In this document: piece by piece, positions 14,808 through 44,561 of the stretch
How positions within the stretch are numbered: the first letter of the stretch is position 1
Layout of the letters: each line of letters begins with the position of its first letter
Source of the DNA: Candidatus Levybacteria bacterium GW2011_GWA1_37_16
Lineage (GTDB): Bacteria > Patescibacteriota > Microgenomatia > Levybacterales > UBA12049
DNA: 44,809 bases
Direction of reading: 5' to 3'
NCBI GenBank assembly: GCA_943354875.1
Contig: CALRDJ010000002.1
Coordinates: 1-44,809 of the forward strand
Position numbers and translations under genes: made by a program
The notes under the pieces: generated by a model
What the model was told of the DNA's origin: nothing
The model's database searches: none
The model's input: the letters and a program-made list of their open reading frames with translations, nothing else

Positions 14808-14873
14808 AGAAGTACTATTCTAGCATCATCAGCTTGTTTTTCCCAAATGATGAAGCTACAATAATAAAACTTC

Positions 14874-15623
14874 ATGACAAAAAAGAAATACAAAGCTCTC
14901 ATCTTAGATGTCGACGGCACTACTATTCCTAACAGTCGCGATGGAATGCCCTCAAAACGCGTAACTGATGCGATCAGAAATGCAAACCAAAAACTTATCG
15001 TAGGTCTTGCCAGCGGAAGACCATACGAAGATCTGAATCATATTGCCAAACACCTAGAACTATCTGGTCCTCTTATAGTAAACGGCGGAGCAAGAGTAGT
15101 AGATTCAAAAGGAAAAACATTATGGGAGAAAATCATCAATACTCATGATGTGATAGAAATTAAAAATATTTTTTTTCGATACAACACTAACTGTTTTATA
15201 TATGATAATGGTCGAGATGTGATAATTTCCAAAGAATACATTCCAGAAAGGGCTTTACAAATCTACTCACAAGGTCTTGATCCAGAAGTTGCAAATCAAA
15301 TTATTGAAAAAATATCTACTATAAAAACCGTTTCTGTTCATACGGTACATTCTTGGACTAGGGGGAGAGTCGATGTTATGATAAATCATACTAGTGCCAC
15401 AAAGCAGCATGGCATTCTCGAATTTGCTAAATTACTAGGCTTAAATACTCACGAAATTATCGGTGTCGGTGATGGGAACAATGACTTTCCGCTTCTTATG
15501 GCATGCGGGTTAAAAGTGGCTATGGGAAATGCATCGGATGATCTAAAAGCCATAGCCGACTATGTAGCGCCGACGGTGGACGAAGATGGCGTCGCAGATG
15601 TGATCGAAAAGTTCATATTGTAG
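14874..15623 (+). CDS. HAD-IIB (Cof-type) phosphatase
   Basis: Motif I LDVDGT, motif IV GDGNNDFPLL and a Cof-like cap region are present. Confidence 0.8.
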   Translation: MTKKKYKALILDVDGTTIPNSRDGMPSKRVTDAIRNANQKLIVGLASGRPYEDLNHIAKHLELSGPLIVNGGARVVDSKGKTLWEKIINTHDVIEIKNIFFRYNTNCFIYDNGRDVIISKEYIPERALQIYSQGLDPEVANQIIEKISTIKTVSVHTVHSWTRGRVDVMINHTSATKQHGILEFAKLLGLNTHEIIGVGDGNNDFPLLMACGLKVAMGNASDDLKAIADYVAPTVDEDGVADVIEKFIL

Positions 15624-28546: not shown

Positions 28547-30076
28547 ATGCCTGTTTATTCAGACGTTGCCAAAGATCTACACGACATCTACACGAAGAAC
28601 CGAATAATAATCGGCACCTCCGCCTCACAGCAAAAACCATCAGCACGAAAAAAAACTATAGCCGTAGTCGGGATCGCTCTCGGAGATGAAGGAAAAGGAC
28701 GCCTCGTCGATAATAGAATTCAATCACTCCTAAAGAAAAAGTCTACTAAGCATGTGTATGTCGTTCGTTTTCAAGGAGGAAACAACGCTGGCCACACGAT
28801 AGAAAAAGAGGGAGTAAAACTCGCTCTGCACCTTATCCCCTCTGGCGTATTTTACAAAGAAACTATCGGTATTATGGACCGAGGTATGTTTATCCATGTA
28901 GAGGATTTACAAACCGAAGTTGGGTATGTAGAAAAAGCGATCGGAAGTCTTAAAAACCGCCTCTTCTTATCTGACGAGGCCATTTTCTCATCTGATTTGG
29001 AACGCGCTGAAGAATGGCTTAACCGCATAAAAGCAGGGCAGGCTGCTGGCGGAACCGGTCGCGGAGTCGCACCATCATACGCTCATGCGATTGATCGACT
29101 GGGACTAAAGATGTTTGATTTTTTATCCGATGGGTGGACTGAAAAACTCGGTGATCAATATGATCGATATGTAAAAGAATTTAAAGCATATGGTATTGAT
29201 CTAAAGATAGTTGAAGTACCAGACTTTTTAGCAACGATTGCAGCAGGGTCTGAAAAAAAACGAAAAGTAGGCAGTAAAAAAGAATTTTTATCTAGACTTG
29301 AAACAGCCAGGAATTGGCTAGTCAAACGAAAAATGATTATCAACACGTTTCTTGTCCATAAAAAAATAAAAAATGACTCTTCTATCGCGATTCTTTTCGA
29401 GGGCGCACAAGCTACGGGACTTGATCCATGGATTGGAACTAGACCAGATGTTACCTCGACTAATACATCCGCATATGGAATCCGAGATGGCACTGCGTTC
29501 TGGCAACCATTTGAAGTAGAAAAAAAGGTCGGCGTATTTAAAATTCCTTATACTTCCAGTGTCGGTGCTAGACGCATGCCTACTCACATCGATCTCCCAA
29601 AAGACCTGAAAGACTTACCGAAGAATCCATCGCTTGACCAAGAATGGGGCGCATATGTCCGTGAAACTGCACATGAATACGGCACGACCACCGGACGACC
29701 TCGAGATATTAACCATCTCGATCTTCCATTTCTCTCATACAACGCCAAAATGTCTTATATTGACGTACTTGAAGGAACTCATCTGGATATAGCACGAGAA
29801 GACACTAAGATCAAAGTGTGTACACATTATGTGAATAAAAAGGGAGAGATAGTTCCCTATCAACCAGGACTCAGATATCAAAGAGACATTACTCCCATAT
29901 ACATAGAGCTACCTGGATGGGACGGCAGTCTCTGTAAAAAGGCCAAGAAAGTTACAGATTTACCACTGAACGCTCGAAAATATCTAAGCTTCATCCAGAA
30001 AAGAATGGGACTACCCATTGTCGGAGTTACCACTGGATCTCTGCGGGACAACATCGTCTACTTCGAAGGATATTAA
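28547..30076 (+). CDS. purA: Adenylosuccinate synthetase, unusually long divergent form
   Basis: GDEGKGRLVD, QGGNNAGHT, GGTGRGVAPSY, FEGAQATGLD and GTTTGRPR motifs are present. At 509 aa it carries an N-terminal extension and internal insertions relative to the ~430 aa canonical enzymes. Confidence 0.85.
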   Translation: MPVYSDVAKDLHDIYTKNRIIIGTSASQQKPSARKKTIAVVGIALGDEGKGRLVDNRIQSLLKKKSTKHVYVVRFQGGNNAGHTIEKEGVKLALHLIPSGVFYKETIGIMDRGMFIHVEDLQTEVGYVEKAIGSLKNRLFLSDEAIFSSDLERAEEWLNRIKAGQAAGGTGRGVAPSYAHAIDRLGLKMFDFLSDGWTEKLGDQYDRYVKEFKAYGIDLKIVEVPDFLATIAAGSEKKRKVGSKKEFLSRLETARNWLVKRKMIINTFLVHKKIKNDSSIAILFEGAQATGLDPWIGTRPDVTSTNTSAYGIRDGTAFWQPFEVEKKVGVFKIPYTSSVGARRMPTHIDLPKDLKDLPKNPSLDQEWGAYVRETAHEYGTTTGRPRDINHLDLPFLSYNAKMSYIDVLEGTHLDIAREDTKIKVCTHYVNKKGEIVPYQPGLRYQRDITPIYIELPGWDGSLCKKAKKVTDLPLNARKYLSFIQKRMGLPIVGVTTGSLRDNIVYFEGY

Positions 30077-30084
30077 ATCCTATT

Positions 30085-30170
30085 GTCATGCCGAACTTGT
30101 TTCGGCATCTCCCTGTGTCTAGAACTTGCCCCGCCGTAACGGGGAGATCCCGAACTAAATTCGGGATGAC
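30085..30170. repeat. 86-bp composite palindromic element (three hairpins), a probable bidirectional terminator between purA and guaB
   Basis: Hairpins are ATGCCGAA-cttgt-TTCGGCAT (30088-30108), CCCCG-ccgtaa-CGGGG (30129-30144) and ATCCCGAA-ctaaa-TTCGGGAT (30147-30167). The termini GTCATGCCGAA and TTCGGGATGAC are inverted repeats with one mismatch. Confidence 0.8.
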
Positions 30171-32732: not shown

Positions 32733-32883
32733 AAAAAAACCTCTCGTAAAGAGAGGTTTGCCTTCTCACCTAGTAAGTGGACTAATCCTTCCCTTTACGG
32801 GTTGGGTTTAGCACCGTTTCAATTTTGAGCGGTTGCCGGATGGGTCACAGAGCCAATTCTCTCGCCATCACTCTTGATTAAAG
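32733..32883 (-). promoter_or_regulatory. SAM-I (S-box) riboswitch: aptamer (32779-32883) plus intrinsic terminator / RBS-sequestering hairpin (32733-32760)
   Basis: The minus-strand RNA is CUUUAAUCAAGAGUGAUGGCGAGAGAAUUGGCUCUGUGACCCAUCCGGCAACCGCUCAAAAUUGAAACGGUGCUAAACCCAACCCGUAAAGGGAAGGAUUAGUCC. It carries the S-box signatures AUCAAGAG, P2 GAUGG/CCAUC with a kink-turn, CGGCAACC, GGUGCUAAA, a P4 hairpin and P1 UUAAUC/GAUUAG. It is followed by ACCUCUC-UUUAC-GAGAGGU, a U-run and the AUG. Confidence 0.88.
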
Positions 32884-41021: not shown

Positions 41022-41067
41022 CCTGCCTGCCGGCAAGGCAGGGATCCTGAATCAAGTTCAGGATGAC
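41022..41067. repeat. Composite repeat: CCTGCC-tgccggcaa-GGCAGG palindrome abutting an ATCCTGAA-tcaag-TTCAGGAT(GAC) hairpin
   Basis: Both repeat classes of the window sit side by side in the ruvC/rplY divergent intergenic region. Confidence 0.8.
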
Positions 41068-42317: not shown

Positions 42318-44561
42318 TTATTTGGGCCAACTTGAAATCATAATGGAATCCTCTCCCCCCAGCTTTCCATACATCTCTTCTGTTATGAATGGCATAAATG
42401 GATGTAGGAGTTTTAAGAGAGTTACGAATAGCGAATTGAGAACCATAAAGGAATTTTCATCAATTCTGTTCTTAACATCTTCTATGTATTTATCAGCGAA
42501 TTCATGCCAGATAAACTCATATAATTTTTCAGATGCGAAATTAAACTGATAACTGTCTATATTTTTCGTAACTTCTGTAACCAAAGCCTGTACTTTTTCC
42601 ACCATCGCCTTATCATTCTCATGCATTGAAATAGTGTCATTCTGGAGCGTAGCGATAGAATCTATTTGAGGGATCCTATCGGTCGTTTCGCTCCCTCCAG
42701 GATGACCCGAAGTAGGTCTTTTCATTTCTATAAACCGTGTCATGTTCCAAAGCTTATTCGCAAATTTTCTTGACGCATCGAGCTTCGGATATGAAAGACT
42801 TTGATCATTTCCTGTGGCATTTCCATATACGAGCGCAAATCGCACCGCATCCGCACCGTACTGCTCCACCAGCTCCAAAGGATTTACTACATTTCCCTTG
42901 CTCTTACTCATTTTTTTCCCATATGGGTCATTTACGAGTCCATGAAAAAGCACATCTTTAAAAGGAACCTCTCCAGTAATATACATCCCCAGCATAATCA
43001 TGCGTGAAACCCAAGAGCGTAAAAGATCATACCCGGTTTCCATGACCGCAGTCGGATAAAACTTTTCAAAATCACCAGACTTTGTGGTCATAAGTGTCAA
43101 GTATGGCCACTGCCCTGAAGAAAACCATGTGTCAAATGTGTCAGTATCCTGTTCTAGATTAGTAGATTCACATCTTGGACATTTATCTGGCTTCTCACCC
43201 TCAGTTACTATCCAGTCTGATTTTTTGTCATTCTGGAGCGGATTCGACGAACTCACCGTAAACTCCGCGATAGAATCCTTATGAGAGATCCTATCGGTCG
43301 CCTTGCTCCCTCCAGGATGACAAGAGACGCACTGCCAGGCAGGAATACGAATTCCCCATACAATTTGTCTGGAAATATTCCAATCTCGTAAGTTATCCAT
43401 CCACTGACCATAATGGTTTTCGAAGTTTTTAGGAGTTATTTTTATTTCACTTTTTTTAACCGCTTCAAGTGCTTTTTCTTTTAGTGGACCTACTTTCACA
43501 AACCACTGCTCGAGCGGTAATGGCTCCAAAACATTTCTGCATTTATAGCAAAGCCCTACTCTATTTACATATTCTGTATCAATTTTTTCAATTAACCCTT
43601 TCGCCTGCATCTCTTCCACTATCGCTGCACGAGCCTGCTTGATATATAATCCCGCAAACTTACCTGCGTGCTCATTCATCTTCCCGTCAAACCCGATTAC
43701 CTGCTTGAGTGGCAGATTGTGTCTTTTTCCTGTCTCATAATCATTAAAATCGTGCGCCGGTGTTACCTTCACCACGCCCGTTCCGAATTCGGGATCGACC
43801 ATCTCATCCCCTACTACTTGTATGCTTGCCATACCCAAAACCGTCTCGACCTCTATTACTTTTCCAATGTATTGCTGATACCGAGGATCTTTCGGATGCA
43901 CGGCGATACCGGTATCGCCAAATTTTGTTTCAGGACGCGTCGTGGCTAAAACAAGCGGTCCATACTTTATGTAATACAAAGGACTTCTTCGTTCTTCGTG
44001 TACGACTTCCAAGTCTGAGTAGCCGGTTCCATCAAATGTGCAGTAATTTACCAATCGGTAATCTCGATACACGAGTCCATCTTCATGCATTTTTTTAAAC
44101 GTTTTATATACCAGCAGGACGATGTCTGGATCGAGCGTATATTTTTGGCGTGACCAATCAAGGGAGAATCCAAGCTTCCTGAGCTGATTCTCTATCCCCC
44201 CCTTATTCTCCTCTACATACTCACTGATCATCTTGTAGAGCGTTTCCTGGTCAAAATCAAACCTCGACTTTCCCTGCTCTTTTAGCTTCTTTTCGAAAAC
44301 GAATTGGGTTTCAGTTCCTGCATGATCAGTGCCCGGCAGCCATAATGCACTCTCTCCGAGCATCCGATGATATCTGATAAGAACATCCTCTACCGCAAAC
44401 ATCGCATGACCGAAATGAAGTGCTCCATTCGCATTTGGTGGCGGCAAAACAATACAATATGGTTTTCCATCTGGGTGAATTTCAGGCTTAAAATATCCTT
44501 TTTCTTCCCAATCCCTGTATATTTTCTCCTCAACGTCTCTGTGGTTATATATCTTATCCAT
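42318..44561 (-). CDS. valS: Valine-tRNA ligase, short form without the C-terminal coiled coil, carrying two repeat-derived insertions
   Basis: PPPNANGALHFGHA (HIGH), KMSKSKGN (KMSKS), TRPETKFGD and VDPEFGTGVVKVTPAHD are present. 747 aa. Confidence 0.95.
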   Translation of the reverse strand: MDKIYNHRDVEEKIYRDWEEKGYFKPEIHPDGKPYCIVLPPPNANGALHFGHAMFAVEDVLIRYHRMLGESALWLPGTDHAGTETQFVFEKKLKEQGKSRFDFDQETLYKMISEYVEENKGGIENQLRKLGFSLDWSRQKYTLDPDIVLLVYKTFKKMHEDGLVYRDYRLVNYCTFDGTGYSDLEVVHEERRSPLYYIKYGPLVLATTRPETKFGDTGIAVHPKDPRYQQYIGKVIEVETVLGMASIQVVGDEMVDPEFGTGVVKVTPAHDFNDYETGKRHNLPLKQVIGFDGKMNEHAGKFAGLYIKQARAAIVEEMQAKGLIEKIDTEYVNRVGLCYKCRNVLEPLPLEQWFVKVGPLKEKALEAVKKSEIKITPKNFENHYGQWMDNLRDWNISRQIVWGIRIPAWQCVSCHPGGSKATDRISHKDSIAEFTVSSSNPLQNDKKSDWIVTEGEKPDKCPRCESTNLEQDTDTFDTWFSSGQWPYLTLMTTKSGDFEKFYPTAVMETGYDLLRSWVSRMIMLGMYITGEVPFKDVLFHGLVNDPYGKKMSKSKGNVVNPLELVEQYGADAVRFALVYGNATGNDQSLSYPKLDASRKFANKLWNMTRFIEMKRPTSGHPGGSETTDRIPQIDSIATLQNDTISMHENDKAMVEKVQALVTEVTKNIDSYQFNFASEKLYEFIWHEFADKYIEDVKNRIDENSFMVLNSLFVTLLKLLHPFMPFITEEMYGKLGGEDSIMISSWPK
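42636..42706 (-). repeat. 71-bp imperfect palindromic element, in frame inside valS (anticodon-binding region)
   Basis: The element is GTCATTCTGGAGCG...GATAGAATC-tatttgagg-GATCCTATC...CGCTCCCTCCAGGATGAC. It encodes HPGGSETTDRIPQIDSIATLQND. Confidence 0.8.
43227..43321 (-). repeat. 95-bp copy of the same element, in frame inside valS (Zn-knuckle region)
   Basis: About 85-88% identical to 42636-42706 by hand alignment, plus a 24-nt internal insertion. It encodes HPGGSKATDRISHKDSIAEFTVSSSNPLQND. Confidence 0.8.

Follow-up and report, generated by a model that had tools for sequence, protein, structure and literature searches.

The valyl-tRNA synthetase (ValRS) gene, valS, of Candidatus Levybacteria bacterium GW2011_GWA1_37_16, a member of the Candidate Phyla Radiation (CPR), carries two palindromic repeats within its reading frame. 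We identified these repeats in a stretch of 44,809 nt (NCBI GenBank assembly GCA_943354875.1, contig CALRDJ010000002.1, positions 1 to 44,809; hereafter the window), and found that each palindrome consists of two inverted hairpin units with their sequence tags on the outside. Our results indicate that the repeats are, with high probability, dimers of selfish palindromes of the repetitive extragenic palindrome (REP) type, that they belong to the (T/C)GTC-tagged "CGTC" superfamily, and that they were copied within the genome and are probably tolerated in the enzyme as disordered loops.

valS encodes an intact ValRS with two in-frame repeats

The valS gene, which is the last gene of the window (42318-44561, minus strand), is a single intact open reading frame (ORF) of 2244 nt that encodes 747 aa. 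Its product matches the ValRS of T. thermophilus (1GAX) with E = 1.5e-157, and its catalytic and knuckle motifs are intact: the HIGH-type motif HFGHA at aa 49-53, KMSKS at aa 550-554, and a Zn knuckle formed by C411xxC414 and C461xxC464. The nearest relatives of this ValRS are all from Candidatus Levybacteria or Patescibacteria, with top identities of about 74-79%.

Read along the gene, the first repeat (copy B; 43227-43321, minus strand, 95 nt) encodes aa 415-445 (peptide HPGGSKATDRISHKDSIAEFTVSSSNPLQND) and lies in the Zn knuckle, directly after the TGT codon of Cys414 (C411-V-S-C414). The other repeat (copy A; 42636-42706, minus strand, 71 nt) encodes aa 620-642 (peptide HPGGSETTDRIPQIDSIATLQND), follows ...FIEMKRPTSG, and sits at the junction of the catalytic domain and the anticodon-binding domain. 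A search of the window for repeats paired 42652-42706 with 43267-43321 (55 nt, 87% identity). Alignment of the coding strands showed that both copies start with GTCATCCTGGAGGGAGC and end with CGCTCCAGAATGAC, in the same orientation and the same frame, and that 63 of 71 positions are identical once a 24-nt, 8-codon block found only in copy B (43243-43266) is taken out. The 17-mer GCTCCCTCCAGGATGAC occurs in the window only twice, once in each copy, where shuffled sequences predict 0.09 occurrences. RNA folding predicts a long hairpin for each copy (-28.2 kcal/mol for A and -38.5 kcal/mol for B; z = -4.4 and -3.9). Furthermore, two of the three sense frames of each copy contain stop codons, and valS uses the one that does not.

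These results agree in most respects with the first-pass annotation of the window, made from the sequence alone, which had placed two palindromes in frame in valS and had estimated by hand that they share 85-88% identity, orientation and termini apart from the 24-nt block. Two details required correction. The palindromes are indeed 71 and 95 bp long, but neither length is divisible by three; the DNA added in frame is 69 and 93 nt (CAT...GAC), and the leading GT belongs to the preceding codon (GGT or TGT). Similarly, the first insert does lie directly after the first CxxC of the knuckle, but four further residues, KKSD, separate it from WIVT. A Pfam search with the insert peptide alone returned no family. 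One example of a predicted tryptic peptide that covers an insert is IPQIDSIATLQNDTISMHENDK.

We assessed the structural context of the inserts with an AlphaFold2 model built from 71 homologues, which was confident overall (predicted local distance difference test score [pLDDT], 83.3; predicted template modelling score, 0.84). The pLDDT fell below 50 only at aa 418-447, aa 552-557 (around KMSKS) and aa 619-627. The first and last of these stretches fall in the two inserts, both of which are modelled as coil, in the second case to about aa 635. Together with the lack of any counterpart in 1GAX (see below), these data uphold the proposal that the inserts occupy loops. In addition, the valS of the window is matched without a single mismatch by an ENA metagenome assembly, the NCBI metagenome-assembled genome (MAG) GCA_943358235.1 and the Logan assembly of ERR4405442, three assemblies that come from different pipelines and may rest on shared reads. 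Misassembly, which had been raised as a concern, is therefore unlikely.

Each repeat is a dimer of tagged hairpin units

To define the family to which the valS repeats belong, we scanned one genome per species using only the outer 12+12 nt of the element as the query. All matches listed share one plan: GTCATYCTGGAG, arm, CGATAGRATC, loop, GATYCTATCG, arm, CTCCAGRATGAC. Each half of this plan can be read from 5' to 3' as a unit made up of a (T/C)GTC tag, a 6-bp basal stem (ATYCTG/TAGRAT) whose last pair is G·T, a tandem G·A/A·G, an inner arm, and a C tail. The variable Y and R positions form a Watson-Crick pair (T..A or C..G) within a half in 93 of 97 parsed elements; between halves they do so in 28 of 97. 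We compiled 371 units from loci in genomes, metagenomes and viral contigs; their third basal pair is T-A in 215, C-G in 149 and non-Watson-Crick in 7, and 17 identical inner arms were found with both types of basal pair. The inner arms are 7-33 nt long and unrelated in sequence (GCGAAGC, GGCTCTGAAAGAGCC, GCCGAAGGC, GTGGCAACGACCAC, or a repeated module G-GA-GC...GC-GA-C); often the arm is the GCGAAGC mini-hairpin, and at least 2 bp close the arm in 108 of 120 distinct units. The pairing of the Y and R positions within halves and the closing of the inner arms thus identify the hairpin unit as the building block.

The valS copies conform to this plan and are members of the family. Copy B comprises unit B1 (43287-43321, minus strand, at the mRNA 5' end; T-GTC-ATCCTG-GA-GGAGCAAGGCGACC-GA-TAGGAT-C) and unit B2 (43227-43277, plus strand; T-GTC-ATTCTG-GA-inner arm-GA-TAGAAT-C), separated by a 9-nt spacer read from the sequence (43278-43286). 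Unit B1 has a C/G-type basal pair and a double G·A module, and its predicted fold is the expected hairpin. Unit B2 has a T/A-type basal pair, and its inner-arm hairpin is extended by the 24-nt block, which is the kind of variable arm found throughout the family. Copy A comprises unit A1 (42672-42706, minus strand, at the mRNA 5' end; G-GTC-ATCCTG-GA-GGAGCGAAACGACC-GA-TAGGAT-C) and unit A2 (42636-42662, plus strand; T-GTC-ATTCTG-GA-GCGTAGC-GA-TAGAAT-C). Each copy is thus a dimer of two REP-like hairpin units and not a single palindrome resembling a miniature inverted-repeat transposable element (MITE), and both valS copies are heterodimers with their tags outward. Heterodimers of one T/A-type and one C/G-type unit account for 65 of 97 parsed dimers; when the scan was seeded with single units, a recognisable partner within 130 nt was present for only 48 of 149.

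The ends of the units are conserved to different degrees. The tag base at position -1 is T in 117 (79%) and C in 22 (15%) of the 149 units among the matches listed, and T in 49 and C in 20 of the 76 dimers among them; in valS, three units carry TGTC and one carries GGTC. The first base of the tail is C in 142 of 143 distinct units (99%), and CCA is the commonest tail (63/143, 44%). The valS units retain only the C: the two tails read on the mRNA strand are CTC and CCC, and those of the opposite strand are CCT and CTA. Finally, the stem starts with AT and ends with AT both in the valS units and in three other tagged units of the window (at 30085, 30145 and 41043, described below); for the AT stem start, only the window units are informative, as the family-wide search pattern imposed it. 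The flanks of the 76 dimers showed only a palindromic preference, a pyrimidine at -1 and a purine at +1, and no direct repeat or target-site duplication was evident in those inspected. We also considered an autonomous parent element and rejected it: orphan ends, sought over distances of up to several kb, proved to be degenerate copies or nested ones and not the ends of an insertion sequence (IS).

The same two ValRS sites hold different repeat families in relatives

We next compared the two insertion sites among the 120 closest ValRS homologues, all from Levybacteria or Patescibacteria. Most have neither insert; for example, P0035 reads CKGC-SG-WIVTEG, encoded by TGT TCC GGT TGG, and in many of the 120 the Zn knuckle is wholly missing. 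Nor does 1GAX have a counterpart of either insert: site 1, in the knuckle, falls between two matched stretches, and site 2, at the domain junction, consists mostly of gaps. The first-pass annotation had likewise described the inserts as absent from canonical ValRS.

At the DNA level, the site after the knuckle cysteine contains different tagged elements in different relatives. In P0048, TGTC-ATCCTGAAC..GTTTCAGGAT-C is followed by GATCCCGAA..TTCGGGATGAC and by part of a third unit; P0005 carries a composite that differs from that of P0048; and the element of P0053 is a GTCATCCTGAGCAAAGCGAAGGATC dimer whose spacer houses a single nested unit, GTCATTGCGAGCGAAGCGCGGCAATC. The element starts right after the cysteine codon (TGT|CAT) in the window, P0048 and P0005, where the TGT of the tag is thus provided by this codon; P0053 has three codons (FSR) between the cysteine and the element. 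Site 2 likewise contains EMPKQVRHD-type, VILSGAKDL-type, HPEQSEGS-type and other inserts in other lineages; the intergenic unit at 30085 of the window belongs to the EMPKQVRHD type.

The two sites of a given genome tend to agree with each other. In the window, the P0053 host and the P0048 host, both sites are occupied at the DNA level by the same family, and the families differ between genomes; judged by peptide, the same pairing is seen in P0084 and P0007. In the P0053 host, both sites hold composite elements, and the nested single unit is identical between them. These data show that whole elements, even composite ones, are copied or converted within a genome. They fit both fresh transposition and gene conversion between occupied sites.

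The segment around site 1 also varies as a block. In two comparisons, of P0010 with P0102/P0103 and of P0037, P0026 and P0039 with P0087, proteins that are about 97% identical elsewhere have wholly different IPAW-EQD segments (equivalent to about aa 408-470 of the window ValRS, 43150-43340), with a knuckle and repeat-derived insert in one form and no knuckle in the other. The second set of proteins also revealed a domain of about 100 aa (REWKP...KFHKPELDV) at the same spot in P0087. The segment behaves as a swappable cassette, which suggests recombination.

The valS-type family is listed under many phyla and recurs in other essential genes

Matches of the valS type were found at a minimum of 117 genome loci and 120 metagenome loci. 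Among the matches listed, classified by record titles (some of the bins may be contaminated), CPR bacteria are represented by Curtiss-, Levy-, Roizman-, Davies- and Woesebacteria, WWE3, Saccharibacteria and Paceibacterota. Other titles are those of Gammaproteobacteria MAGs, Clostridia, Bacteroidales, Fibrobacter, Acidobacteriota, Chloroflexota and Planctomycetota, the last including a Tepidisphaeraceae MAG with at least 25 loci, and three are archaeal bins. At least 25 loci were listed for MAG DAIRGS01 and at least 10 for JBGVNP01, and the GC content across the matches listed ranges from 29 to 66%.

One set of records calls for caution over the spread across domains. Several gut bins of a single study (H076xx-L1_cleanbin), whose assignments span different phyla and even archaea, contain elements of one subfamily that closely resemble one another, mostly with the arm GGCTCTGAAAGAGCC: L013, L036, L066, L072, L088 and L107 (Sodaliphilus), L039 (Oscillospiraceae), L028 (Methanomethylophilaceae), L029 (Alistipes) and L115 (Eggerthellaceae). 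This similarity points to bin contamination or very recent transfer.

Among the 2.9 million contigs of IMG/VR we found no dimers, and units on only four contigs; phages therefore look unlikely as the main reservoir. One 5357-nt contig classed as viral (L128, IMGVR_UViG_3300029305_010155) contains seven units of the valS-type family, which is unusually dense, and may be misclassified cellular DNA or a repeat cluster.

Many copies lie inside genes. Among the matches listed, 34 of 121 genome-scan dimers are flanked on both sides by at least 60 codons of open frame, and every in-gene copy keeps an open, stop-free frame. Pfam searches verified the identity of six hosts. These are UvrA (from a Levybacteria MAG), RecG (from a Curtissbacteria MAG, with two inserts), SecA, two membrane proteins (a TMEM260-like glycosyltransferase and a Wzy_C protein), and a second, distantly related ValRS in which the insert occupies the same junction of the catalytic and anticodon-binding domains. 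The family thus recurs in essential genes other than the valS of the window, and it is also present between convergent genes and in unrelated genes.

Other tagged elements in the window

The window contains further tagged elements. An intergenic heterodimer of canonical CGTC type with its tags outward (30085-30170) lies in a 105-nt gap between convergent genes that end at 30076 and 30182. Its first unit is TGTC-ATGCCGAA-loop-TTCGGCAT-C and its second, at 30145 on the other strand, is TGTC-ATCCCGAA-loop-TTCGGGAT-C (z = -4.9 for each unit). A single canonical unit, TGTC-ATCCTGAA-CTTGA-TTCAGGAT-C (41043-41067, minus strand; z = -3.5), lies between ruvC and the gene for ribosomal protein L25. All three units have 8-bp stems and 5-nt loops. 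A candidate unit at 14848-14879 (minus strand; TGTC-ATGAAGTT...AGCTTCAT-C) is possible only. The spacer of the intergenic dimer (30110-30144) has a GC-rich hairpin of its own (CCCCGCCGTAACGGGG); comparable "structured spacers" have been described for some CGTC dimers (PMC3733652).

The GTCAT...ATGAC ends of the valS copies are also present at 30085-30170 and 41043-41067, as the first-pass annotation had noted in proposing one proliferating family. Proliferation is borne out by the many coding and intergenic copies in other genomes. The elements at 30085 and 41043, however, are families other than the valS type that have the tag in common, and what links them is thus one superfamily and not one family.

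Relationship to known repeat systems

Repeats of this kind within genes are a known phenomenon, having been described as Rickettsia palindromic elements (RPEs) in 2000 and as tagged REPs in 2013. In the latter study, Di Nocera, De Gregorio and Rocco (BMC Genomics 14:522; PMC3733652) defined the CGTC superfamily with families CGTC-1 to CGTC-4. These repeats have a terminal CGTC tag (TGTC in many), a stem that opens with A-T and T-A pairs, and CCA-type tails; they form mainly HH (tags outside) dimers, often heterodimers, which can also fold as one long hairpin, and single units occur too. They lie no more than 20 bp from the 3' ends of convergent ORFs, and in-frame copies encode 20-30 aa, sometimes twice per gene, with uvrA, recB, dnaE and tRNA-synthetase genes among the hosts. 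They were reported in 5 phyla, mostly from Alphaproteobacteria, and no dedicated transposase is known for them (PMC3733652). The valS units resemble these repeats in their (T/C)GTC tag, AT stem start, C-first tail and tags-outward heterodimers, and the resemblance extends to the 30085-30170 dimer between convergent gene ends, to the presence of two in-frame copies in one gene, and to the uvrA and tRNA-synthetase hosts. CGTC-1 to CGTC-4 have 8-9 bp stems and 4-5 nt loops, and this format also describes the units at 30085, 30145 and 41043. The valS family departs from it in its 6-bp stem, tandem G·A/A·G and 7-33 nt arm. It therefore falls outside CGTC-1 to CGTC-4 and would be a new family; the valS repeats are best filed as such within the known superfamily. 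They also differ in that their host is a CPR bacterium and that the unit type is present under titles of CPR, other bacterial phyla and archaea.

The RPEs reportedly introduced by Ogata et al. in 2000 resemble the valS repeats as in-frame palindromes in functional, often essential genes, at tolerated positions, in a bacterium with a small genome; the host phylum and the unit sequence differ. The analogy with RPEs drawn in the first-pass annotation turned out to be closer than proposed: the valS units have the defining features of CGTC REPs, and that superfamily includes the CGTC-tagged RPE-4 and RPE-6, a link that rests on the published equation of R. conorii CGTC-1 with RPE-6 and CGTC-4 with RPE-4 (PMC3733652). 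The Neisseria CGTC-1 repeat was likewise equated with dRS3, and RPE-1, the classic case, is a palindromic insertion longer than the valS elements (PMC3733652).

Two other systems were considered and rejected as the identity of the valS repeats. GTAG REPs, BIMEs and REPINs are also short tagged hairpin units in inverted dimers, proposed to move as single-stranded DNA (ssDNA) hairpins recognised by a trans-acting enzyme (RAYT). Their tag is GTAG and RAYT genes are associated with them, whereas the tag of the valS units is (T/C)GTC and a tblastn search, itself a weak test, gave no RAYT match (see below). Bacterial MITEs (Correia/NEMIS, RUP, Coxiella QMITE1 and QMITE2) are similarly small, non-autonomous repeats and can overlap ORFs, adding peptides (PMC5896051). 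They have IS-derived terminal inverted repeats and target-site duplications; the valS elements, in contrast, end in tagged hairpin units, and no direct repeat was found in the inspected flanks of the 76 dimers.

Searches of the literature with element sequence strings returned primer coincidences only, and a search for CPR or Patescibacteria together with palindromic or REP repeats found nothing relevant. What is new here is the CPR host; a unit family with a short basal stem, a conserved tandem G·A core and variable inner arms, in records labelled with many phyla; and the finding that two ValRS loops are repeatedly occupied by different REP families that are homogenised within a genome.

Origin and fate of the valS repeats

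We propose that the elements are copied within the genome and that selection filters the resulting insertions by frame, stop codons and loop position. An in-gene copy would survive only if its net length is a multiple of three and its frame stop-free, and only if its peptide falls in a loop and leaves the enzyme functional. Both valS copies would have passed this filter, each in a permissive loop: one at the tip of the Zn-knuckle hairpin, the other in the linker leading to the anticodon-binding domain. On translation they would form disordered loops of 31 aa and 23 aa, respectively, and serve no function themselves. That an active enzyme tolerates the inserts is suggested by the intact motifs, by the stop-free frame and by the analogy with RPEs. 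Copying is likely to be duplicative, by transposition or by gene conversion between sites that hold REPs, and by analogy with RAYT and GTAG REPs it may be driven by a trans-acting enzyme that recognises the tagged hairpin in ssDNA.

Several observations weigh against this proposal. About 55 kb of the host genome (the window together with locus L122) contains two valS-type dimers and three or four units of other families. The lengths of the copies inside ORFs cover all three classes modulo 3. By DNA nearest-neighbour energies, the valS unit hairpins (z = +0.6 to -1.3) are no stabler than shuffled sequences, unlike the fold of the whole dimer, which is; the folding of the units is therefore supported by covariation and not by energy. 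A tblastn search with E. coli RayT found no RAYT-like transposase better than E = 1.7 in the window and about 0.9 Mb of loci with short flanks, a weak test, since genomes usually have a single RAYT gene. Lastly, no near-identical pair of filled and empty genomes is on record, the closest ValRS being about 74-79% identical, and the element ends given here are therefore provisional.

Of the explanations that compete with recent insertion, one deserves serious attention: the valS sites may have been occupied by REPs since the Levybacteria ancestor, the current copies having arisen by gene conversion or template switching (concerted evolution) and not by fresh transposition. We regard this history as possible, although clearly less probable than our proposal as a whole. 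Nearly all of the closest knuckle-bearing ValRS have an insert at the same point after the TGT codon, the 3' ends of these inserts are similar (...C(C/T)CAGAATGAC-AA), and the pairing of one family per genome across both sites, with families differing between genomes, also favours conversion. Many relatives' sites are empty, however, and unrelated unit types occupy them across lineages. Moreover, conversion still requires donor copies and a copying mechanism, so ancestral occupation refines the proposal of in-genome copying and does not replace it.

The remaining alternatives deny that the segments are selfish insertions in a working protein. If the palindromes were functional RNA structures in the valS mRNA (RNase targets, pause sites or antisense small RNA genes) kept for regulation, the strong hairpins predicted on both strands would be expected, and many intergenic REPs have been argued to be transcribed and possibly to act as RNA (PMC3733652). 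We consider this improbable: an Rfam search of 42560-43400 at permissive E-values of up to 10 gave no credible match, the element has two-fold symmetry and is found in either orientation, its family is present in unrelated genes and between convergent genes, and, given where the mismatches lie, the two long helices cannot both pair fully on either RNA strand. Removal of the segments before the enzyme matures, by a mini-intron, translational bypass or an intein-like process that yields a canonical protein, is less probable still. Stable hairpins with repeated ends could in principle favour bypass or excision, but all in-gene copies keep an open, stop-free frame, which would be needless if they were excised and which makes removal unlikely; in addition, 23-31 aa is far below the size of an intein, and there is no ribozyme or Rfam match. 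No such excision system is known in bacteria. The least probable explanation is an assembly or binning artefact, or a valS that is a decaying pseudogene. Palindromes can lead to assembly errors, and the sequence comes from a MAG; set against this are the identity of the 2244-nt gene in three assemblies, the intact ORF with all catalytic motifs, the confidence of the model outside the inserts, and the analogous inserts of relatives.

Implications

Palindromic repeats that colonise essential genes in frame are mostly cited as a curiosity of Rickettsia, and our results extend the phenomenon to the CPR through the same superfamily of tagged REPs. CPR genomes are very small, and CPR proteins are known for odd, lineage-specific insertions. 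Some of these insertions may be translated REPs. For annotation, such segments should be flagged as repeat-derived, being neither functional motifs nor misassemblies. Different REP families recur at the two ValRS loops, and the loops thus mark insertion-tolerant positions. In addition, comparing the presence or absence of these families with gene content could point to the enzyme that moves CGTC REPs and RPEs.

A broader and more doubtful idea is that the GGAG...GATAG unit is one element type across many bacterial phyla, and possibly archaea, that is kept active by a widespread enzyme or by a universal host function acting on ssDNA hairpins, and that in the CPR it remodels the same permissive loops again and again in essential proteins (ValRS, UvrA, RecG, SecA), with copies homogenised in each genome. 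If this were true, the unit would be a standing source of lineage-specific protein insertions in reduced genomes, and it would open the way to the mechanism, long sought, by which CGTC REPs and RPEs are mobilised.

Additional features of ValRS and of the window

A second, low-complexity class of insert is present at ValRS sites in many Levybacteria (NSKFKIQNSKL, KIKNQKSKIKNQK, IRNPKSEIRN, SIKYQVLSI), at positions equivalent to about aa 492, aa 615-640 and the C-terminus of the window ValRS; one type often occurs twice in a protein, as in P0096. These inserts are probably derived from AT-rich repeats without a GTC tag. Upstream of valS, related Levybacteria (L118, 1-3000; L121, 1640-2360) have toxin-antitoxin genes (PIN, MazE, PhD/YefM, ParE), which are absent from the same place in the genome of the window (L122). 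The window has no tRNA or tmRNA gene, and the only match to Rfam at gathering thresholds over its whole length is a SAM (S-adenosylmethionine) riboswitch (RF00162) at 32780-32883 on the minus strand (54.9 bits, E = 4.5e-10).

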